A DNA stretch of 64,000 nucleotides from Spirochaetota bacterium (GTDB lineage Bacteria > Spirochaetota > UBA6919 > CBDBPB01). A program made the translations under genes and the position numbers. The notes beneath the pieces were generated by a model. It had not been told where the DNA came from, did no database searches, and worked only from the letters and a program-made list of their open reading frames with translations. The DNA is taken from the NCBI GenBank assembly GCA_965208615.1, contig CBDBPB010000003.1, forward strand, positions 32,001 to 96,000, read 5' to 3'. Positions 3,416-18,921 of the stretch are shown here, piece after piece; position 1 is the first letter of the stretch; every line of letters begins with the position of its first letter.

Positions 3416-4761
3416 ATGCTAAAACTAGACTGGAATACCTTTGATCAATTTTTAAGAAAAACCTTTCCTAAAGATCAAGAGTTATGGTTAAATTATGTGA
3501 AGTTCTTATCATCGTCGGATAATGAAGTCTTTATATCAGTACCCAATCAACTTTACAAAGAAAGAGTCTATAGTAAATACTATAAAGCTTTAAACCAGCT
3601 ATACAAAAAACAGTTTAATAAAAAACTAAATCTCAATGTTATGATCGGAGAAGAAGAAGATATAATTGTTAAACCTACAAATAATAACCACTTCACACAA
3701 AAAACTAATAATAACTCGAAAATTAATAATAAATTAAAACTAGATATAAAATATACTTTTGATAGCTTTGTAGTAGGTAATAATAGCCTATTAGCTCATG
3801 CCGCTGCCCGAAGGATAGCTAGTGTACCCGGTGAAAATTATAATCCATTTTTTCTATATGGAGGTGTAGGACTAGGTAAAACCCATCTAATGCAGGCTAT
3901 TGGGCATCAGGTTACCATTAAAGAACCCTTTATGGAAGTAATATATGTTACCAGTGAACAGTTCACCAATGAATATATAGTATCACTACAAAAAGGCCAG
4001 GTTCATGCATTTAGACTTAAATATAGAAACGCAGATTATACTTTTAATTGATGACATTCAGTTCTTAGAAAGAAAAGAGGGAATTCAAGAAGAACTTTTT
4101 CATACATTTAATATGCTAAAAGATTCAGGTAAACAAATGGTCTTTACCAGTGATAGATCCCCCAGAGAGCTTAAAACTATTAAGGATAGATTAATATCCC
4201 GTTTTTCATCCGGATTAGTAGCCGATATTAAACCTCCTGACTTAGAAACCAGAGAAGCCATTATCAGAAAGAAAATGATAGAAAATCAAATTGTAATAAA
4301 TAAAGAAATTATTAACTTTTTGGCAACAAATATTACCAATAATGTTAGAGAATTAGAGGCATCGGTTATTAAGCTAAAATCCATTGTAGACCTGCTAAAT
4401 GAAAAATTAACACTAAAACGAGTCGAAGAAGAATTACAGGATATACTAAATTGTAATCTTACAAAAAAACACATTTCTGTTGAACCTATACAAAAAGAAG
4501 TCGCTAACTACTATAATATTAGCTATTCAGATATGAAGTCAAAAAAAAGAACCGATGTTATTGCCAAACCACGTCAAGTTGCAGTTTATCTAACTAAACT
4601 TCTTACTAACTTGTCTACTACCGAAATTGGAAACGAGTTTGGTGGTAGAAATCACTCAACTATTATAGCCTCATGTAAAAAAATAGATAAAGAAACTTAT
4701 ATCAAATGAATCCACCCGTAACGATATTGATCATCTAAAAGCTAAGCTTTTACGTATATAA
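3416..4761 (+). CDS. dnaA: Chromosomal replication initiator DnaA, with two apparent +1 frameshifts (~4036 and ~4694)
   Basis: YTFDSFVVG, Walker A GGVGLGKT, LLIDDIQ, RL.SRF, NVRELE, FGGRNHST. Removing one base at each site gives a continuous 447-aa ORF ending ...TRNDIDHLKAKLLRI*. Confidence 0.95.
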
Positions 4762-6218: not shown

Positions 6219-7106
6219 TTAGGGAGTTCTTTTTTTTATCAGCAAGTTCTTTTTATTAGTAAGTTCTCTTTTTTTGTTATTATCCGCTTTCTTTTTGCTA
6301 TTACCCGCTTTATAGTCAAATATAATGGTATACTTAAATTTAAGATTACTTTTAACTAACTTATATAACTTGTTTAACTTCTCCAAGTTATTTAAGTTAT
6401 TCCATTTTAGTTTATAATCTACTATTTCATAAATATTAACCTTTTTTATGCTATTTTTACCGTTATAAAAATAACTTATACATTTTACTACTTCTTTATT
6501 AGAGTCGAGATGTATTATCATTTTTATTCTTTTAGTAAAATCGTATACATATACCTCACCTGATTGAAAATAAAACTTTTTAGCATAAGGTTTTTTTATA
6601 TAGCGTTCTTTAAGCTTCACGCCATTTTTTAAAATAAAAAAAGTTTTTTTAGTAATCAGTTTTTTATTTGTATTATACTTGTCTATATTGTAGTAATAAG
6701 CTAATTTATAAATAAGACGATTTTTATAATAAGCATATTTATAGTTAATATAAAGGGTTTCTTTTTTAGGATATTGAATAGTTTTTTTAGCTAAAATTCT
6801 CTTTTTATATACGAATTTAATATCTTTAGTCCAATTTTTATTGTTAAACCATTTTTCCTTTACCAACAAGCCTAAGGAATTATATTTATATACCTTATAT
6901 TCAATTATACTGTCTTTTTCATTATATACTTCTTGTTGTATTTTTTGTCCTTGTTTGTTGTAATAGTTTACCAAATAGCCTTGTACATTATTTATACTAT
7001 CATATGATATTGCTCTTTTATATTTATACCTGTCAAGTTCTGGCAAAGCAAAGGTGGGTATTACTAATAGAATTAATAAAATTATTAAAGTAATCTTTAT
7101 TTTCAT
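6219..7106 (-). CDS. Secreted Lys/Tyr-rich hypothetical protein with YD/RHS-like beta-hairpin repeats
   Basis: Signal peptide (PTFA); repeated Y.YN..G motifs. Confidence 0.6.
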   Translation of the reverse strand: MKIKITLIILLILLVIPTFALPELDRYKYKRAISYDSINNVQGYLVNYYNKQGQKIQQEVYNEKDSIIEYKVYKYNSLGLLVKEKWFNNKNWTKDIKFVYKKRILAKKTIQYPKKETLYINYKYAYYKNRLIYKLAYYYNIDKYNTNKKLITKKTFFILKNGVKLKERYIKKPYAKKFYFQSGEVYVYDFTKRIKMIIHLDSNKEVVKCISYFYNGKNSIKKVNIYEIVDYKLKWNNLNNLEKLNKLYKLVKSNLKFKYTIIFDYKAGNSKKKADNNKKRELTNKKNLLIKKRTP

Positions 7107-9242: not shown

Positions 9243-9881
9243 CTATTCTATTTTAGGATAGAATATTTCACTAATAATTTCACCTTTAATATCATATTCA
9301 TATATCCAGTGACCAGTATTTTTACCTTCTTCTGAGTAGATATATTTTTCTTCTTTCCATTTTAGGATTTTTTCATCAATAAGTTTATAATATCTGATAT
9401 AAGATATAGCTCCCTGCCAATCATAGTGTTCTTGTTTATACAAAGTATTATTGTTATAGTAAGAAATAGACTGGATGGCTTCATTTTCGTAATACTCTTC
9501 GACTTTGGTAAGAGTTTTTTTATTACCATTTATCTTAAAATGCTTTATCATATTATATTTGCCAATATCATTAGCAATTTTAACTTTAACGATGGCATTT
9601 TCTTTTATATATTCATATTTTATATATTTATTATTTTTGAGATATTTTATAGTTGCCAAGTAGGTAATTTTACCATTAACGTTGTAATGTTTTTCAACGT
9701 ATATTTTAGTTTTTTTATATTGTACTTCATAATATAGTTTTTCTTTAGGTTTTTTAGAAATCTTATTTTTATAAGAATAGTCACCCCATTTATTTTTTTC
9801 TGCATTACTATAATAAACAGTATTACTGTATCCAAAAGAAGATATGGATACAAATAGTAGTAAGTAAAATATAGTTTTCAT
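9243..9881 (-). CDS. Secreted Lys/Tyr-rich hypothetical protein with YD/MORN-like repeats
   Basis: AAGGAGG RBS, signal peptide, repeated E.YY...G motifs. Confidence 0.65.
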   Translation of the reverse strand: MKTIFYLLLFVSISSFGYSNTVYYSNAEKNKWGDYSYKNKISKKPKEKLYYEVQYKKTKIYVEKHYNVNGKITYLATIKYLKNNKYIKYEYIKENAIVKVKIANDIGKYNMIKHFKINGNKKTLTKVEEYYENEAIQSISYYNNNTLYKQEHYDWQGAISYIRYYKLIDEKILKWKEEKYIYSEEGKNTGHWIYEYDIKGEIISEIFYPKIE

Positions 9882-10115
9882 ATAAGGTACCTCCTTAAAA
9901 AAACTAATTTATTAAAACAGTTATAATATAATTACTTTTGGAAATTGTTACTAATTATTCCAAAACTATTTTAAATAGATTTTAGATATATAAAGTAACT
10001 CTTAGAATACCCTTATAATAGCACGGTTAATAACAATATATCTATACAATAAAAGTCTTATTAAAAAGTTAACCTAATTGCTAAAATTTAACTTATATTA
10101 TATTAGTGAATATAA

Positions 10116-10802
10116 TTGTTTAGGAATTATCTAATGAGATCACTAAATGAGATTACTCAATGGCATCCAATATCAATTCAAAAATGGCTTCAAGAAGTAG
10201 ATGAGATCGACCTTATTCTAGTTCTATCCCACTCTTCAGAGGCTGTTAAACATCTTATTTTAGAAAACCTTTCCTCCCGAATCCGTAAGTTGGCTATAGA
10301 TTCTATGGATGATTATGATAAAGTCCCAGAAAGCATTGTCAAAAAAGCAAAAAAAAGAGCGCTTGGCCTAGCTAATGAGCTAATCGAACTCGGAGAACTA
10401 AATGAACCAGGTGAAGAAGAACTATATAAAATAACCAGAAATACTATACTCCCTAAACTACTCCAAACTAATAATACCGCTAACCTTATTAAAACTATGA
10501 CTATACTAGGAGAGTATGCCAAAGAACGAGGACTCCTGGCTCTAGAAGAAGCCTTAATAAAAATTAAAGACCCTTTTTTAAGAGATGCCTTACAGCTTAT
10601 AATCGACGGCACAGAAGCTGACGTTGCAGAAGAAATACTTAGAAATCGTGTAGAGGCTATTACATATCATCGTGAACTATTATATAACTTAATAATCGAA
10701 GGTATATTGGGTATACAAACTGGTAATTCAAGCTGGATATTGCGTATGCGTCTTAAGTCTTACTTACCGCCAGAAATGGGAGGTGAAAATGGACTATATT
10801 AA
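10116..10802 (+). CDS. Soluble FliG C-terminal domain fused to a MotA cytoplasmic domain (probable start ATG 10134)
   Basis: The N-half resembles FliG_C (IQKWLQEVD..DL...IL.NLSSR...ELGEL). The C-half resembles the MotA cytoplasmic segments (AKERGLLALEE, DPFLRDALQLIIDG, IIEGILGIQTG). No TM helix. Confidence 0.75.
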   Translation: MFRNYLMRSLNEITQWHPISIQKWLQEVDEIDLILVLSHSSEAVKHLILENLSSRIRKLAIDSMDDYDKVPESIVKKAKKRALGLANELIELGELNEPGEEELYKITRNTILPKLLQTNNTANLIKTMTILGEYAKERGLLALEEALIKIKDPFLRDALQLIIDGTEADVAEEILRNRVEAITYHRELLYNLIIEGILGIQTGNSSWILRMRLKSYLPPEMGGENGLY

Positions 10803-10843: not shown

Positions 10844-11146
10844 ATGTGCCTTGGAATACCCGGAAAGGTTATTGAAATAATAGATGAAAACGGCCTTTTG
10901 ATGGGTAAAATAGATTATAATGGTACCGTAAATAAAGTATGTCTAGCTTATATTCCTAATATAAAAATAGGTCAATATACTATTGTCCATGCAGGTTTTG
11001 CTGTTTCTGTTATAGACGAAGAAGAAGCACAAAAAACCCTTGCTATATGGGATGACTTAAAAGAAAAACTTGCCGCTAGCGAAGGAAGCAATGTTTATGG
11101 ACAACCTTTAAACCGCTCCATTAATAACAAAAAACGGTATAAATAA
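10844..11146 (+). CDS. hypC: Hydrogenase maturation chaperone HypC/HupF
   Basis: MCLGIPGKV N-terminus, IVHAGFA, IDEEEA; AAGGAG RBS. Confidence 0.95.
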   Translation: MCLGIPGKVIEIIDENGLLMGKIDYNGTVNKVCLAYIPNIKIGQYTIVHAGFAVSVIDEEEAQKTLAIWDDLKEKLAASEGSNVYGQPLNRSINNKKRYK

Positions 11147-11230
11147 AAACTTAAAATATTATTTATAATTAAATCGGTTTTTTTATATAAAAACTATCCC
11201 CTTAATGTTAACACTGTTTGAGGAGAAAAT

Positions 11231-12178
11231 ATGGCTGGTAACACTGTATGTATAAATAATGTAGAAATACACTTAAGTCATCCAGATGAGCTTAACATTG
11301 ATTTAGTGGGTTTTTATGAACTTCAAAAACAGCTAAAAGCATGTTGGACAACTTTAAATAATAATGATATTCCCCTTGTACCAAGAATACTAGGACGACC
11401 CGGTGTAGGTAAAACTACCCTTGCCTATTCCGTTGCAAAACAAATGAATTATGAAGTCTATATTTATCAGTGTACTATGGATACAAGACCTGAAGACTTA
11501 ATTATTACTCCCGTATTAAGCAATGATCCTAAAGGCTTTTGGACAAATGCTATTGGAGGTAAAAATAATAAAATAAAATATCATGCTTCTGCACTGGTAA
11601 CCGCTATGATAAAAGGAGGAATAGCCATATTGGATGAAGGTAATCGGATGAGTGAAAAATCATGGGCAAGTCTAGCTCCTCTTTTTGACAATAGACGATA
11701 TGTAGAATCCATAACTGCTGGTATTAAAATTAAGGCTCATCCTAATTTTCGTTGTTGCATAACTATGAATGATGATTCTTCGACTTTTGAGGTTCCAGAG
11801 TATATAATGTCCAGATTACAGCCTCAGATTTATGTTGACTTTCCATCGCGTAATGAAGAAAAAGAAATACTAAAAATTAACCTGCCCTTTGCTGAAGAAG
11901 ACTTAATAAATATAATGAGTGACTTTCTTGCTAATGCCCATAGATTTGAGGAACCCTTTACTAGTAGGGATGGTATTCATATTATTAGGTTTACACGTCG
12001 TCTTATGAATAACCATTCTGAACTATCCCAAGAAAATGCTCTAAAACAATCAATAAGTCAAGTTTTAGGTCAAGATGCTGTTAATTATTTAAATCCTGAC
12101 TATCAGCCTACATTTAATATGCCTTATAAAAAATGGGACTACCCACCGGAAGAAGATGATTTAAATGAATTTATCTGA
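11231..12178 (+). CDS. MoxR/CbbQ-type AAA+ ATPase
   Basis: Walker A GRPGVGKT, Walker B ILDEGNR, AHPNFR..TMN, SRL arginine finger. Confidence 0.88.
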   Translation: MAGNTVCINNVEIHLSHPDELNIDLVGFYELQKQLKACWTTLNNNDIPLVPRILGRPGVGKTTLAYSVAKQMNYEVYIYQCTMDTRPEDLIITPVLSNDPKGFWTNAIGGKNNKIKYHASALVTAMIKGGIAILDEGNRMSEKSWASLAPLFDNRRYVESITAGIKIKAHPNFRCCITMNDDSSTFEVPEYIMSRLQPQIYVDFPSRNEEKEILKINLPFAEEDLINIMSDFLANAHRFEEPFTSRDGIHIIRFTRRLMNNHSELSQENALKQSISQVLGQDAVNYLNPDYQPTFNMPYKKWDYPPEEDDLNEFI

Positions 12179-14114
12179 TAAGTACTTCAAATTTGATAAT
12201 ATTTATTGTATTCCATCTGTACACGGCTCTATTGACTTTGCTCAACTGGTAAAAGAGGCCTTTTTTGATATTGAACCAGACTGTATAGCAGTAGAACTAC
12301 CAGAATCCATTATGAGCCATGTATTAAAGGGTGTAAAACAGTTACCCTATTTATCAGTCGTATCCTTTTCGGATAACCCTAATGTATATCATTATGTTCC
12401 CATTCACCCTGGAGATTCAATAATAGAAGCTGTACGACTGGCTGTTGAACATCAAACCGAACTATACTTCGTAGATAAAGATGTTGGAGAAATAGATATT
12501 CCCCCTGTTATTGTCCCTGACTCATATTATCTTAGCAAATTAGGGCTAAAAAACTATTGTAATAATTATCTCAAATATATTAAACCCACTGCCTTAAACT
12601 CTATACACTATCTACGAGAAACAGAAATGGCATTTAGGGTTAAAAAGATTTCATCTGCATATAAGCGTATACTATTTGTTTACGGCCTACAACATCATCA
12701 CAGAATATCAGAACTTTTAATGAAACCTTATCCAAGTAATATTTCATATAATACCATCGAAAGGGACCACATTAGTCTAATGTATATAGATAAGTCTATT
12801 TATACAGAAGTATTAGGTAATATGCCTTTTCAAACATATATCTATGAGGTTACCAGAAAAGGACTTTCCACTACAAACCTTGGTATAGATATACCCCCTT
12901 ATGACACTCACCTAGATAGTACTGAAAATCTAAAAAAATCGTTTTACAAAAAAGTTAATGAAAATGCTAACAGACTAAAAAACTTAACTACACAAAATAA
13001 TACCTTTGATCAATATGATAGCCTCCATGAAATATTTATATTAAGTAAAAAGCTGTATAAACGTGAATGGAACGATCAGACATCTATTAATAGGCTTTCT
13101 ACTGCGTTAAAGTTTGCCAGAAATTATGCTTTTGTTAGTGGTAGCCTTGTACCATCCCCTTATCAGCTTATTGTTTCTGCCAAGAATACCATTAACGATG
13201 ACTATGCTTATGAACTATATAGGCTTATATCTTTCTATCCCTTTTTAGATAACCTTTATAACTTGCCTGAGGTTACATTTAATAACAATAAAGCCAATAT
13301 TGATGGGCATGATGTTAAATTAAGACCTTATTTGCCTATGCAACCGTGGACAATAGAAAAAATACCTATTAAAAAGCGTCCTAAAGAAAAAAAGCCTGGT
13401 GATTGGGAAAAGATCTGGAAGTCAGGATATGATTTGGTATCCTATCCAGCTGAGGATATTATTATAGAAAATTATTTTTATTATCTTAGGAGAAAAGCTA
13501 GGTCTATATTAGAAAAAGACCTTATCATCACCAGAGAATTTACAACATCTTTAATGGATGGCCTTGATATTAAAGAAACTATCCGAAACCTACACCTCAA
13601 TAAACTATATGTAAAAGAATGTCTACCCTTTAAAGGAGATGTTGGAACTATTGTTATTATCTTTGATGAAGATGTTGATAATAAATATTCCTTTCATATG
13701 ACATGGTATGCTGAACACCAAAATGAATCTGATCTTGCTCTATACTCAACACCACCAGGTAAAAAACTCATAGGACCCGGTATTAGTCAGGCTGAATATG
13801 GAGGAGTTCTATCTATATACCCTCCAAGGGGTGTAAAAGAAGTATGGTCTGATGAGCGATTTAATAGAGCTAAAACTAAGTCCCAAAAACTCCTTATGGC
13901 TGGGATATATTATTCTGAAAAAAAGTATATTGTTTATGTTTCAAAAATACCTCCTACAATTTACTATCGTTCTTTGGCAGAACAACATGGACATCATATT
14001 TTACACATACCAATTAATCAACTTTCAGATTCTATGATTAAAAAGGTTAAGTTTTTCCACTTTTTAGCGGATAGACGTTTAAGAGGAATTGCTGGAAGGT
14101 ATATTAAAAAGTAA
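12165..14114 (+). CDS. Large AAA+ partner protein with a TraB/Tiki-like N-terminal domain and a degenerate VWA-like C-terminus
   Basis: Overlaps the ATPase stop; VH, AVELP, FVD, RE..MA, VYGLQH pattern; GLDIKETIR followed by IVIIFDED. Confidence 0.6.
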   Translation: MNLSDKYFKFDNIYCIPSVHGSIDFAQLVKEAFFDIEPDCIAVELPESIMSHVLKGVKQLPYLSVVSFSDNPNVYHYVPIHPGDSIIEAVRLAVEHQTELYFVDKDVGEIDIPPVIVPDSYYLSKLGLKNYCNNYLKYIKPTALNSIHYLRETEMAFRVKKISSAYKRILFVYGLQHHHRISELLMKPYPSNISYNTIERDHISLMYIDKSIYTEVLGNMPFQTYIYEVTRKGLSTTNLGIDIPPYDTHLDSTENLKKSFYKKVNENANRLKNLTTQNNTFDQYDSLHEIFILSKKLYKREWNDQTSINRLSTALKFARNYAFVSGSLVPSPYQLIVSAKNTINDDYAYELYRLISFYPFLDNLYNLPEVTFNNNKANIDGHDVKLRPYLPMQPWTIEKIPIKKRPKEKKPGDWEKIWKSGYDLVSYPAEDIIIENYFYYLRRKARSILEKDLIITREFTTSLMDGLDIKETIRNLHLNKLYVKECLPFKGDVGTIVIIFDEDVDNKYSFHMTWYAEHQNESDLALYSTPPGKKLIGPGISQAEYGGVLSIYPPRGVKEVWSDERFNRAKTKSQKLLMAGIYYSEKKYIVYVSKIPPTIYYRSLAEQHGHHILHIPINQLSDSMIKKVKFFHFLADRRLRGIAGRYIKK

Positions 14115-14399: not shown

Positions 14400-14804
14400 T
14401 TGAACACTCTTAATCTTTCAGTAAAAAGCAGAACAGAAAACGTTGGACAAATAGTAAAAAGACTAGGTGAATTTTGTAAAGAAAATAATATTGATCAAAA
14501 AATCATAGAAATGCTACAAATTGCAACGGATGAAGCTATAACAAATATTATTTTTCATAGTTATAAAAATATTGATGGTATTATTAATATAACATTTACA
14601 TTAGATGAAAAAACGATTATTATTAAGCTTGTTGATTTTGGAAAAATATTTACACCAAGTAAAAAAGTACATAATGATAATAAAAAGGTGAAAATAGGGG
14701 GTTATGGTCTTGTATTAATGAATAAACTCATGGATGATATACAATTTTCATATGATCATAAAGAAAAAGCAAACAACCTAATTATGAAAAAATATTTAAA
14801 CTAA
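14400..14804 (+). CDS. RsbW/SpoIIAB-like anti-sigma factor kinase (HATPase)
   Basis: EAITNII.HSY, D.G..F, GGYGL.LM.KLMD. Confidence 0.9.
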   Translation: MNTLNLSVKSRTENVGQIVKRLGEFCKENNIDQKIIEMLQIATDEAITNIIFHSYKNIDGIINITFTLDEKTIIIKLVDFGKIFTPSKKVHNDNKKVKIGGYGLVLMNKLMDDIQFSYDHKEKANNLIMKKYLN

Positions 14805-14823
14805 CTTTTTGGAGGCTTTTTTT

Positions 14824-15159
14824 ATGGAACTAAAAACCAAAAAAGAAGGTAAAGTTCAAATCATTCACCTTGAAGGTAGATTAGACGTTCATTTATCTTT
14901 AGAGATTGAACAATCTATAAATGCTTTGATAGATGATGGAGAAAAATATTTATTATTTGATCTTGATGGTGTTCAATATTTGTCTAGTTCAGGGCTACGG
15001 ATCTTTATCGCTGCTATGAGAAGAGTAAAGGGCTTAGATGGGAGTATTAAACTTGCTAATATGAGTGAGCCAGTAAAGAAAATATTTAAAGTAGTTGAGC
15101 TTATTGATTTGTTTGAAATCTACCCCTCCATTGACGAGGCTTTGGCTGCATTTAACTAA
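14824..15159 (+). CDS. STAS-domain anti-sigma factor antagonist (RsbV-like)
   Basis: GRLD, DL.GVQYLSSSGLR with the phosphoacceptor Ser; GGAGG RBS supports ATG at 14824. Confidence 0.92.
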   Translation: MELKTKKEGKVQIIHLEGRLDVHLSLEIEQSINALIDDGEKYLLFDLDGVQYLSSSGLRIFIAAMRRVKGLDGSIKLANMSEPVKKIFKVVELIDLFEIYPSIDEALAAFN

Positions 15160-15185: not shown

Positions 15186-16890
15186 ATGATTAATTCTATT
15201 TCTATTAAAAACATAGCTTTAATAGAAAATTTAAAAATCGACTTTTTTGATGGACTAAATATAATAACCGGTGAAACCGGTACAGGTAAATCTATATTAC
15301 TTAGCTCCATAGGATTAGTTTTAGGAAGTAAAGTTCACTCTGAGCTAATAAGAACAGGTTCACAAAAAGGTAGTGTAGAAGTTGTTTTCGATATAACTAA
15401 TAACTCTGCCTTAAAAAAGCTTTTAGAAAAGTTATCCATTGACGTAGAAGATAACATACTTATAATAAAGCGTGAACTAACAAATGAACAAAGAAGCCGT
15501 AGTTTTATAAATCTTAGTCCTATTCCTAATTCCACCCTTAAAATAATTGCTGAGAATCTTGTTGATATATCGGGTCAGCATGAACATCAATCTCTATTAA
15601 GGTCTCAAACTCATATTGAGCTTCTTGATAGCTTTGGTAACCTAACTAACTCTTGTAAAGAGTTTACTAATGAGTTTATTAATATTAATAATCTAAAATC
15701 CAAATTAAAAAAACTCTCTATTGACGAAGAAGAAAAAGAGCATCAGCTTGAAATGTATAAGTATTCCATAGAAGAGATTGAAAAGCATCAGCTAAAAGAA
15801 AATGAAGATACTAATTTAGAACAAGAACTTAATACCCTTAATAACTTTGAAAAGATTAATAGATCAATAGAAAATATCTATTATTACCTTTATCCACAGG
15901 ATCACTCAATCATTCCATATACTGAGAAAGTTATAGTTGAGTTAGAAAAGATAGTCCAGTTTGATTCAAAAATAGATAAAACAATTAACGACGTAAGAGA
16001 GTCTCTATACCTTTTAGAAAACGTTAAAGATACGATCAGAAGCTATAAAGATGACTTGGAATACTCTTCTGATCGTATAGAAGAGATCAACCAAAGACTT
16101 AATACTATAAAAGACCTCAAACGTAAGTATGGAAAAACTATAACGGATGTAATAACATATAAAAGCCATTGTGAACAAGAAATACAAAAAATATCTCAGA
16201 ATAAAGACCTAATAATAAAGTTAAGTGCTGATGTTAAACAAAAAGAAAAAGAAATCTCTGAATTAGCTATAAAATTGTCCAAAGCCAGACAAAAAAAAGC
16301 TAAAAATCCTTGAAAAAGAGATTGAACGAGAACTATCTTTTTTAGGTATGGAGAAATCAGCATTCAAGGTTGAGTTCCGCTATATACAAAACAATAAAAG
16401 CTATTTACAGATATCAAATAGAGGTGTAAAAATAGAGGATCATGGTATTGATCGACTAGAGTTCACTTTTTCAGCTAATCCGGGAGAGATGCCTAAATCT
16501 TTAGTTAAGATTGCCTCAGGTGGAGAGCTATCTAGAGTAATGCTGGCTATAAAAACTATCCTTACAGAAATGGACGAAATAGATACCCTCTTATTTGATG
16601 AGGTAGATGCTGGTATTGGTGGTGAGATGTCTATTAAAGTTGCGAAAAAGATTAAGGATATATCTAGTAAACGTCAAGTTCTTTGTATAACGCATTCTCC
16701 ATCTATAGCTAGTTATAGTAAGCATCATTATTTCGTTGATAAGTTCGAGGAAGATGGAAGAACTAAAACCATCATAAAAACTTTAAATGAAGAAGAAAAA
16801 ATAAAAGAAATCGCCAGGATGATCGGAGGTGATAAAATTACCGAATTATCGCTAAAACATGCCAAAGAAGTTATTGAAAAAACTAAATAG
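15186..16890 (+). CDS. recN: DNA repair protein RecN (one +1 frameshift in the A-runs at 16291-16306)
   Basis: TGETGTGKS, GQHEHQ, ASGGELSRVMLA, FDEVDAGIGG, QVLCITH. Confidence 0.95.
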
Positions 16891-17892: not shown

Positions 17893-18921
17893 TCAGGTAA
17901 GTACTCTTAATACAACCTGTGGTCTCATATTTGCTTGAGCCAACATAGAGGCAGAGGTCTGAGTTAAAATTTGATTTTTTACAAAATCCACCATTTCATC
18001 AGCCATATTTATATCCCTAATTTGGGATTCTGCACTTTGTAAGTTCTCAGCCGCAATATCCAAACCTCTAATAGAGTGTTCTAGTCTATTAGTATAAGCT
18101 CCAAGATCTGCTCTTTGACGATTAACCTTATAAATAGCAGAATCAACTTGTCCAATCATAGTATTGGCAGAGTCCTGACTAGTAACAGTAACATGTAATT
18201 TACGATCCTTAACATCGGCAGTTGGAGCATCAGTGGCTAATCCCAAGGCATAGGCAGACATATTTTCTATATAAAATCTTTCATTCTGATCCATGTTAGC
18301 CCCTATGTGTATATAAAGACCTCCATAAGGTTCTTTAGCGCCGTTTTCGGCAGATCGGATAGGAGAATGCTCTACTGGATCTTTAGTATAGGGTTCAACA
18401 GGTCTTATAGGCGGGCTAGCCTGCTTTTGAACGTCTTCGGCTTTCCACGGACGATCTTTTTGTACATTTCTACTAAACTCTTCATCAAATGGATCCCTTC
18501 TCAATCCTCCTCTTAAAACTCTAAGAGTATTAAACTCGGCCTGAGAAGCAATTCTATCTATCTCATCAACGAGTTGTCTTATTTCCACTTCAATTTGTAG
18601 CCTATCTTCATAGGTATAAATACCGGTTGCCGCTTGAACAGCAAGTTCCCTCATACGTTGCAATATGGTTTGAGTTTCCTCTAACCATCCATCAGCAGTC
18701 TGCAAAAGAGATATTCCATCTTGAGCATTACGACTGGCCTGATTTAACCCCCTTATTTGTGATCTCATTTTCTCAGAAACAGCTAAACCAGCGGCATCAT
18801 CTGAGGCTCTGTTAATCCGTATTCCACTAGATAGCTTTTCAATATTTTTTTGAATTCGCCATGTATTAATGTTGAATTGGCGGTAGGCGTTCATAGCACT
18901 AATATTATGATTGATAATCAT
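17893..18921 (-). CDS. flaB: Flagellin, spirochaetal FlaB-type filament core protein
   Basis: [67 protein letters not shown]. Confidence 0.93.

Follow-up and report, generated by a model that had tools for sequence, protein, structure and literature searches.

What use might a cell have for a soluble protein in which a piece of the flagellar rotor is joined to a piece of the stator? This question is raised by a gene in a 64,000-nucleotide stretch of DNA, referred to here as the window, from a Spirochaetota bacterium (GenBank assembly GCA_965208615.1, contig CBDBPB010000003.1, positions 32,001 to 96,000 of the forward strand). The gene encodes a protein of 222 amino acids (aa), the query of the searches described below, which consists of a FliG-like domain (FliG_C, abbreviated G), a linker, and a MotA-like cytoplasmic domain (abbreviated M). 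Torque in the flagellar motor is generated at the electrostatic contact between MotA and FliG, whose weakness, short life, and attachment to the membrane have made it difficult to study. The window gene is a member of a large and taxonomically wide family of proteins built from the two sides of this contact, a family which, for the present, is apparently undescribed. The reading that is tentatively favoured here is that these proteins bind to themselves through a replica of the rotor-stator contact that needs no ion flow, and that they serve in regulation or as interaction modules.

Domain composition of the protein

The window protein carries a bona fide FliG_C domain. The Pfam profile of this domain (PF01706) matches the query with an E value of 3e-13 and a score of 50.4 bits, against a cut-off of 23.3, and the match spans residues 7-95 of the query and positions 18-106 of the 108 in the profile. 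The predicted fold of this half superposes on solved FliG_C structures (8wo5/1lkv) with a Z of 16.3 and a root-mean-square deviation (rmsd) of 1.2 Å over 90 residues (2-91, VIA-align). Together, the Pfam match above the gathering score and the superposition bear out the FliG C-terminal pattern that an earlier note on this DNA had recognised in the N-terminal half. The G half is 33% identical over 86 aa to one of the two FliG proteins of the same genome (E 1e-7), and resembles the other less closely (E 0.005). In the Pfam search and the alignment, FliG_C alone was found in the query, with FliG_N, FliG_M, and ARM_C being absent, and the fliG model TIGR00207 scores the protein at 34.2 bits against a cut-off of 226.7. 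The query is thus without the regions that contact FliF, FliM, and the neighbouring FliG, and cannot sit in the C-ring. By its domain content, lacking both the N and the M domains of FliG, it is not a FliG.

The C-terminal half is, by alignment, a homolog of the cytoplasmic domain of MotA, in which the loop that follows the second transmembrane (TM) helix leads into the tail that follows the fourth. Five NCBIfam models of MotA, MotP, and PomA match the query, with E values of 2e-16 to 3e-11, and their scores lie far below the full-length cut-offs (59.7 bits against 340), so that these are partial matches. In BLASTP, residues 101-182 of the query correspond to residues 57-135 of the genome's own MotA (258 aa; E 8e-11), and residues 188-221 to 216-249 (E 1e-5). 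These two pieces are collinear, which implies that residues 1-56 (TM1-TM2) and approximately 136-215 (TM3-TM4) of MotA are missing. A profile of the query's subfamily aligns in this two-piece fashion with MotA chains of known structure (6ysl, 1.3e-11), and in the alignment with the MotA of E. coli and other MotA, the TM3-TM4 hairpin is cleanly excised, the second part of the M domain being directly joined to the first, and TM1-TM2 is absent. No TM-like segment was found in the query, where the best 19-residue hydropathy is 1.21 (no segment reaches 1.6), in comparison with 2.16 in the genome's own MotA, and no match of the Pfam family MotA_ExbB (PF01618) to the query was found. The earlier note had also described a MotA post-TM2 loop joined to a post-TM4 segment with all the membrane helices removed, and the two collinear matches and the low hydropathy agree with this description. 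Without any of the four membrane helices, the M domain has no channel and no means of binding MotB, and, judged by its sequence, the protein is not a MotA.

Models of the whole protein were obtained with AlphaFold2. An alignment of the 13-sequence subfamily gave a predicted local distance difference test (pLDDT) score of 79 and a predicted template modelling (pTM) score of 0.49, and an alignment of 50 diverse G-M proteins gave a pLDDT of 88.7 and a pTM of 0.66. When the first model was submitted to Foldseek, no match was found at E ≤ 0.001, the best being a FliG_C chain (1qc7_A, 1.6e-2), and the top rows consisted of FliG_C and MotA chains. Among the orthologs of the query, the column identity is 0.75 in G and 0.82 in M, against 0.64 in the linker, and the length and composition of the linker differ across the wider family.

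Size and architectures of the family

A word-indexed search returned 33 matches: the protein's own record, 12 orthologs, 18 ordinary MotA, and two reverse-order relatives, in which the MotA-like domain comes first and FliG_C last. The orthologs (215-234 aa, 55-65% identity) are recorded as 'hypothetical protein' in Spirochaetota or in unclassified metagenome-assembled genomes (MAGs), and coincide with the query at both ends and at the junction. An exhaustive profile search of 1.84 billion cluster representatives recovered 2638 matches at E ≤ 1e-3, 497 at E ≤ 1e-10, and four at E ≤ 1e-30, many of which cover both domains in a single match. Hundreds of distant relatives carry the same TM excision, and FliG_C was found by Pfam in 37 of the 40 relatives scanned. 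Among the few members with taxonomic records, the commonest phyla are Thermodesulfobacteriota, Spirochaetota, and Bacillota.

The architectures were established in a set of 178 sequences (149 profile matches listed, with P0003 left out, 16 from the word-indexed search, and 13 further, the query being counted twice), which were scored with a hidden Markov model (HMM) built from 27 minimal two-domain proteins. One G and one M are found in 88 of the 178 sequences (53 G-M and 35 M-G), and one G and two M in a further 50, most of them G-M-M (41) and some M-M-G (six). The arrangement G-G-M-M was found five times and M4-G2 twice, and exactly five tandem M domains are present in five sequences (three M5-G2, one M5-G, and one M5). 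None of the 178 has more than five M domains, and the leftover sequences belong to smaller or ambiguous classes. The five-M chains, with M domains that are free of TM helices, are P0046 (948 aa, from the Treponema sp. MAG MCL2233222.1), P0049, P0039, P0075, and P0067.

The two partners are also joined with the membrane helices in place. A full TM-bearing MotA is followed by a C-terminal FliG_C in P0074 (503 aa; Pfam and hydropathy) and in P0204 (424 aa; HMM and hydropathy only), and is preceded by an N-terminal FliG_C in P0207 (382 aa; Pfam and hydropathy). Given that G and M are joined in both orders, in multiples, and in the form of a complete membrane MotA with FliG_C, the 'Rosetta stone' fusion of rotor and stator proposed in the earlier note is well supported. 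Other relatives carry additional domains. P0044 and P0068 carry regions 2 and 4 of an extracytoplasmic function (ECF) sigma factor at their N-termini (Pfam), and the N-termini of P0109, P0118, and P0165 resemble, by eye only, the sigma part of P0044. There are also fusions to TPR (P0039), LRR (P0111 and P0129), and FliG_M/N (P0058) domains, as well as weak MgtE_N matches in several relatives. Approximately 21 relatives (P0050, P0053, P0056, P0059, P0072, and some 16 others) have in common an N-terminal domain of around 80 aa (residues 1-85) placed before G-M(-M), with the motif LPxxPsLExLKKQAKxL...SLQEAQHVLAREYGFxxW, for which Pfam gave no match at E ≤ 1e-3 in the three proteins scanned (P0050, P0053, and P0056).

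A FastTree phylogeny built on 102 columns of 282 M-domain segments recovers the query's subfamily as a clade, with a support of 0.95. The 19 true MotA references do not separate cleanly in the same tree, where any split that includes all of them has at least 124 tips, so that a single origin cannot be demonstrated from it.

Conservation of the interface residues

In E. coli, R90 of MotA is paired with D289 of FliG, and E98 of MotA with R281 of FliG, as given in PMC7564593. The equivalents of these residues in the torque helix of the query are R47 (R281) and S55 (D289), with D54 in the place of D288, while those in its M domain are K128 (R90) and E136 (E98). By E. coli numbering, further torque residues of FliG are presumably K264, D288, and R297. 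R281 and D288 are retained in the query, whereas K264, D289, and R297 are replaced there and in the majority of the 12 orthologs.

Across 100 G-M segments, the column of FliG R281 has an R in 84, that of D288 a D or E in 77, and that of D289 a D or E in 70, while the column of MotA R90 has an R or K in 75 and that of E98 a D or E in 83. The subfamily of the query (n = 13) is peculiar in one of the two pairs: 12 of the 13 sequences retain R281, and 12 retain E98, while the D289 column holds S, A, or F in all 13, and the R90 column has a K in the query, Q in nine, N in one, and E in two. The genome's own MotA and its C3 copy of FliG keep the R and the D, respectively, and the reverse-order proteins of the Leptospiraceae keep all four residues (R281, D289, R90, and E98). 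The loss of the R90/D289 pair on both domains is what would be expected if G and M face each other, and not the real motor.

Distribution and genomic neighbourhoods

Within the Spirochaetota, a two-domain match was found in at least five of the 301 species genomes, among the matches listed; 524 weaker matches are unlisted, and divergent copies may thus have escaped. The five carriers are the window's genome, two others of its order, one of two further genomes in its class, and one member of a distant family. In other genomes of the phylum the best match is FliG alone, and three genomes have no match of any kind. FliG is present in all five carriers, and FlhA in both of those checked (G047 and G263). 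The M-G form occurs in Leptospiraceae MAGs, where its gene likewise stands alone. Of 81 Gemmatimonadota genomes sampled, 36 carry flagellin and seven carry the module. In one of these seven (G331, 4.9 megabases), a G-M-M gene of 376 aa overlaps the SpoIIE phosphatase gene upstream of it, and no match to flagellin, FlhA, FliG, or the MotA cytoplasmic domain was found in this assembly, the completeness of which is not established.

No canonical flagellar operon surrounds the G-M genes in any of the approximately 19 neighbourhoods read. Some of the neighbours belong to regulatory families. In an uncultured Gemmatimonas MAG (contig CAYRZX010000008.1, 41-11008; locus L022), three SpoIIE phosphatase genes precede the G-M gene, which is followed by a FliM-like gene, a 714-aa fusion of an FGE-sulfatase with FliG (N, M, and C domains), a FliN-like gene, and a 155-aa MotA_ExbB gene. 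The G-M profile finds 13 matches in this genome, where FliG paralogs thus appear to be expanded, and a second copy in the same MAG (L029) overlaps an ECF sigma gene. A 311-aa member in a distant Spirochaetota genome (L028) is likewise followed by an ECF sigma gene, and SpoIIE phosphatase genes lie directly upstream of the G-M genes in L035, as in L022, both of them Gemmatimonadota loci. Other copies adjoin PhyH dioxygenase genes (three cases), a response regulator, or unrelated genes.

A proposed mechanism and the points against it

In the solved MotA5B2-FliG_C complex (8ucs), FliG_C is gripped between two adjacent MotA domains (PMC11302681). The proteins of this family would reproduce such an arrangement, with a flexible linker between the stator-facing tip of FliG (G) and the cytoplasmic domain by which MotA faces the rotor (M), and the two would bind each other in the manner of rotor and stator, with the torque helix of G gripped between two neighbouring M domains. 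As FliG_C is held between two adjacent MotA domains in 8ucs, the single-M proteins are predicted to self-associate, and the one-G, one-M protein of the window may form anything from a dimer up to a five-membered ring. The geometry of 8ucs also fits the G-M-M proteins, which would hold a complete pincer in one chain, the number of M domains, which stops at five, the MotA stoichiometry of the stator (MotA5), and the membrane MotA::FliG_C proteins, a natural counterpart of the 8ucs construct.

The product would be a static, ion-independent rotor-stator contact, which would serve as a protein-interaction or regulatory device, and not as a torque generator. The assembly may gather or hold other proteins, which in some lineages would be an ECF sigma factor or the components of a phosphatase-driven partner switch. 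In the window's genome, the gene stands alone. The docking of G on M, the oligomerisation, and the regulatory role are what we infer. The 're-purposed module' that the earlier note had offered as a fallback fits best of all its readings.

A more elaborate and unlikely version of the mechanism envisages soluble rings of five M domains with clamped G domains, forming a non-rotating replica of the stator face that would act as a signalling hub away from the flagellum. Such a hub would hold and release ECF sigma factors and partner-switch components, or would read the occupancy of the motor by exchanging G or M with free stators or C-ring subunits. The M5-G2 proteins would then be a replica of the stator face with the rotor tips written into a single polypeptide, and the membrane fusions would be intermediates.

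A number of observations weigh against the static, self-binding contact. The predicted M domain (residues 113-215) superposes poorly on solved MotA (6ykm_A), with a Z of 5.2, which is under the caution level of the aligner (VIA-align) for helical proteins, and an rmsd of 5.9 Å over 101 residues, so the MotA assignment rests on the alignments. In the model, one continuous helix (162-195) takes the place of the two antiparallel stubs by which MotA leads into TM3 and out of TM4, and, with this poor superposition, adjacent M domains do not necessarily pack as in MotA. R90 and D289 were lost together in a single lineage event. An association of charge between the two columns across the family (table 60/15/10/15) was considered as a sign of co-variation and rejected, as it vanishes once the query's clade is removed, and a mutual-information scan (100 sequences) is unconvincing: the torque helix is involved in six of its top 20 pairs, but the D289-R90 pair ranks 276th and the R281-E98 pair 1889th of 8730. 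The adjacency to sigma factors and phosphatases is found in a minority of cases (two ECF and two SpoIIE among the approximately 19 neighbourhoods), and no such link was found in the three genomes of the query's own order. Flagellin is present in six of the seven module-bearing Gemmatimonadota and in 30 of the 74 others (Fisher p = 0.04, the genomes being kin and not independent), which leans towards a flagellar link. The lack of flagellar genes in G331 is no proof to the contrary, since the completeness of that assembly is not established.

Alternative explanations

This last association is among the evidence for a motor-directed regulator, that is, a soluble protein that engages the cell's own motor. 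It may be a decoy, a clutch, or a brake, or may sense unbound stators or rotor. G would fill the FliG cleft of MotA5, or M would cap FliG_C on the C-ring, or both, and the state would be passed on, as to an ECF sigma factor in relatives. The host is flagellated, with two FliG, a MotA-MotB pair, and flagellin, and every Spirochaetota carrier has FliG, with FlhA in the two checked. The torque residues are conserved in the wide family, and the L022 copy lies beside FliM-, FliG-, and FliN-like genes. Cytoplasmic proteins that mask the MotA-FliG interface include YcgR, EpsE, and MotI, and a further precedent is FapA of Borrelia (10.64898/2026.10.14.759253). On the other side, the R90/D289 pair is lost on both domains of the query's subfamily and kept in the MotA and FliG of the host, which leaves each domain without one of the two classical contacts to its real partner, and a lone M cannot form the two-MotA pincer needed for the binding of FliG_C. 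The module is rare in flagellated Spirochaetota (among the matches listed), no sigma-28-type promoter was seen upstream of the gene (by eye only), none of the neighbourhoods is a canonical flagellar operon, and some relatives are fused to or placed beside ECF sigma factors and SpoIIE phosphatases. G331, moreover, has a G-M-M protein and no detectable FliG, MotA, FlhA, or flagellin. A motor-directed role, the principal alternative, is weakened by these points and rather unlikely. The decoy, clutch, or assembly factor of the earlier note is not demonstrated by these results, four of which weigh against it (the lost R90/D289 pair, the absence of a flagellar operon, G331, and the ECF and SpoIIE links), and the homologs common in non-flagellated genomes that the same note had named as evidence to the contrary amount to a weak showing, of one genome in the seven module-bearing Gemmatimonadota.

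The links to sigma factors may be read in another way, with G-M acting as a soluble anti-sigma-like factor that binds an ECF sigma factor in cis where the two are fused, and in trans where they are adjacent, the window copy controlling a distant sigma factor. The N-terminal fusions in P0044 and P0068 and the sigma genes directly downstream of, or overlapping, the G-M genes of L028 (Spirochaetota) and L029 (Gemmatimonas) are consistent with this possibility, and the ECF classification paper expects that undetected soluble anti-sigma factors probably exist (PMC7826278). The sigma link is nevertheless confined to a minority, with no sigma gene beside the window gene or in the two other genomes of its order, and the anti-sigma families of Pfam gave no match to the query at E ≤ 1. 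To our knowledge, the G-M fold is unrelated to the known anti-sigma domains. The M5-G2, LRR, and TPR forms and the membrane MotA fusions would be left unexplained, and an anti-sigma role is quite improbable. The probability of a decaying remnant, or of a mis-assembled fliG-motA chimera without function, is negligible. The architecture is unusual, and the assembly may contain frameshifts, given that the dnaA and recF-like genes are each split into two open reading frames (ORFs). The frame of the G-M gene is intact, however, the 12 orthologs have the same ends and junction, and both domains are better conserved than the linker. The TM excision is shared with hundreds of distant relatives, and the predicted fold is confident (pLDDT 88.7), so that conservation, as read from the alignments, effectively refutes this explanation.

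The gene and its surroundings

The earlier note had placed the gene across the whole of the ORF that opens at a TTG codon (Table 1). This frame is indeed open on the forward strand, and the true start is probably the internal ATG, because the aligned methionine is the first residue in 12 of 12 close homologs, the database record of the window's own protein (P0002) has 222 aa, and an AGGA ribosome-binding site lies 8 nucleotides upstream of this codon. No terminator-like site was seen between the G-M gene and hypC, which begins 42 nucleotides downstream.

Table 1. Features of the window that are referred to in the text, with positions counted from its first nucleotide.
Feature	Position	Strand	Remarks
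ORF, open from TTG 10116	10116..10802	+	228 aa
Coding sequence of the soluble G-M protein	10134..10802	+	222 aa from ATG 10134; stop codon 10800-10802
Promoter-like TTAACT-17-TATAAT	10088-10116	+	Consensus match only
Putative AGGA ribosome-binding site	10122-10125	+	Consensus match only
G domain, residues 1-90	10134..10403	+	FliG C-terminal six-helix subdomain with torque helix; Pfam 3e-13
Linker, residues 91-112	10404..10469	+	Conserved LNEPGE motif; model confidence lower at 91-100
M domain part 1, residues ~113-176	10470..10661	+	MotA loop after TM2 (ERGLLALEE...DPFL...DGT)
M domain part 2, residues ~182-215	10677..10778	+	MotA tail after TM4 (LIIEGILGIQTGNS...)
hypC (HypC/HupF-family chaperone gene), AAA_5 ATPase gene, and 649-aa gene	10844-14114	+	hypC match 5.9e-25
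AAA_5 (GvpN/MoxR-like) ATPase	11231-12178	+	Overlapped by the next gene (649 aa)
RsbW-like and RsbV-like pair	14400-15159	+	HATPase_c_2 and STAS
RecF/SMC-like ATPase, AAA_23 ORF	15186-16310	+	375 aa
RecF/SMC-like ATPase, SMC_N C-terminal ORF	16348-16887	+	180 aa
Flagellin gene	17893-18918	-	~7 kilobases downstream of the G-M gene
dnaA, first ORF	3416-4048	+	DnaA_N and start of the ATPase
dnaA, second ORF	4005-4706	+	Rest of the ATPase and helix-turn-helix
Lipoprotein-like predicted protein	6219-7106	-	Repeated Y/K/N motifs
Lipoprotein-like predicted protein	9243-9881	-	Repeated Y/K/N motifs

The genome is a 2.46-megabase assembly in nine contigs, and the window has a G+C content of 30%. The organism is flagellated, with two full FliG genes and one motA-motB pair outside the window, and a flagellin gene within it. 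This flagellin gene is on the opposite strand, and the G-M gene lies outside any flagellar operon, as the earlier note had stated. The note was also right in placing hypC downstream of the gene, and was mistaken in the 'AAA+ pair' that it described there: a single AAA_5 ATPase is followed by a protein of 649 aa for which neither a family match nor an AAA match was found. The hypC, AAA_5, and 649-aa genes were considered as conserved operon partners and rejected, given that they are not found beside the orthologs in the other two genomes of the order (L006 and L007), where a divergent Metallophos_2 gene lies upstream and unrelated genes downstream.

A pair of genes encoding an RsbW-like anti-sigma kinase (HATPase_c_2) and an RsbV-like STAS protein is found 3.6 kilobases downstream on the same strand. 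Owing to a frameshift or an assembly error, dnaA is read as two ORFs that overlap in different frames, and a RecF/SMC-like ATPase gene is apparently split as well. The two lipoprotein-like predicted proteins have no match in Pfam or NCBIfam. The PADLOC models of anti-phage systems gave no match at E ≤ 1e-3 to the query, to P0036 (a G-M-M protein), or to P0046.

Comparison with known systems

Neither a TM-less MotA domain nor a natural fusion of FliG_C and MotA was found described in the open full-text literature, and the term 'undescribed' is provisional because subscription journals and supplementary tables lie outside this search. The main text of the ECF classification (PMC7826278) does not mention any FliG or MotA extension. 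Some relatives of the window protein combine an ECF sigma factor with G-M(-M), and are thus comparable with the ECF41/42-type sigma factors that have C-terminal extensions, while the window protein itself has no sigma domain. Outside the flagellum, a FliG_C-like helical domain is known in MgtE_N, and the MgtE structure 8gps aligns with the query model at a Z of 6.2; this domain, however, belongs to a Mg2+ channel, and lacks a MotA-like partner domain.

YcgR, MotI/DgrA, and EpsE are soluble proteins that bind, or are proposed to bind, the torque surface of MotA or FliG, and their PilZ and glycosyltransferase folds are unrelated to G-M. FapA of Borrelia is also a known or proposed soluble occupant of this surface, but is composed of ferredoxin-like domains and a beta-solenoid, rather than of the interface domains (10.64898/2026.10.14.759253). 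Among the known soluble binders of the interface compared here (FapA, YcgR, MotI/DgrA, and EpsE), none is built from the interface domains themselves.

The finding should surprise specialists of the motor, even if the role of the window gene is as yet only suggested by its sequence. The rotor-stator contact would have been duplicated away from the motor and put to new use, in some cases next to sigma factors and phosphatases, and in at least one genome with no detectable flagellar genes, which raises the testable question of how the pieces of a machine turn into signalling parts. The membrane-free fusions and the M5-G2 chains could also provide soluble, crystallisable models of the interface.

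The closest likenesses are with the two parts of the motor. The G domain resembles the torque-helix subdomain of the rotor (FliG_CC) in sequence and in fold, and has the equivalents of R281 and D288, while the query lacks FliG_N, FliG_M, and ARM_C, and its subfamily does not keep D289, K264, or R297. With the MotA/PomA stator (MotA5MotB2; 6ysl, 6ykm, and 8ucs), the query shares the post-TM2 loop, the post-TM4 tail, and the equivalent of E98, and differs in the absence of the TM helices, the ion path, and the contact with MotB, as well as in the replacement of R90 by K (Q in most orthologs). For the 8ucs structure, in turn, unstructured linkers were used to attach FliG_C to the end of MotA (PMC11302681). 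The first structure of MotA with FliG thus needed an engineered fusion, while nature holds hundreds of such fusions, some of them membrane-free. The engineered MotA-linker-FliG_C has the same two partners joined by a linker, and P0074 and P0204 have them in the same order, with the TM helices intact, whereas the protein of the window is a natural fusion in the opposite order, free of TM helices and with a single M domain.

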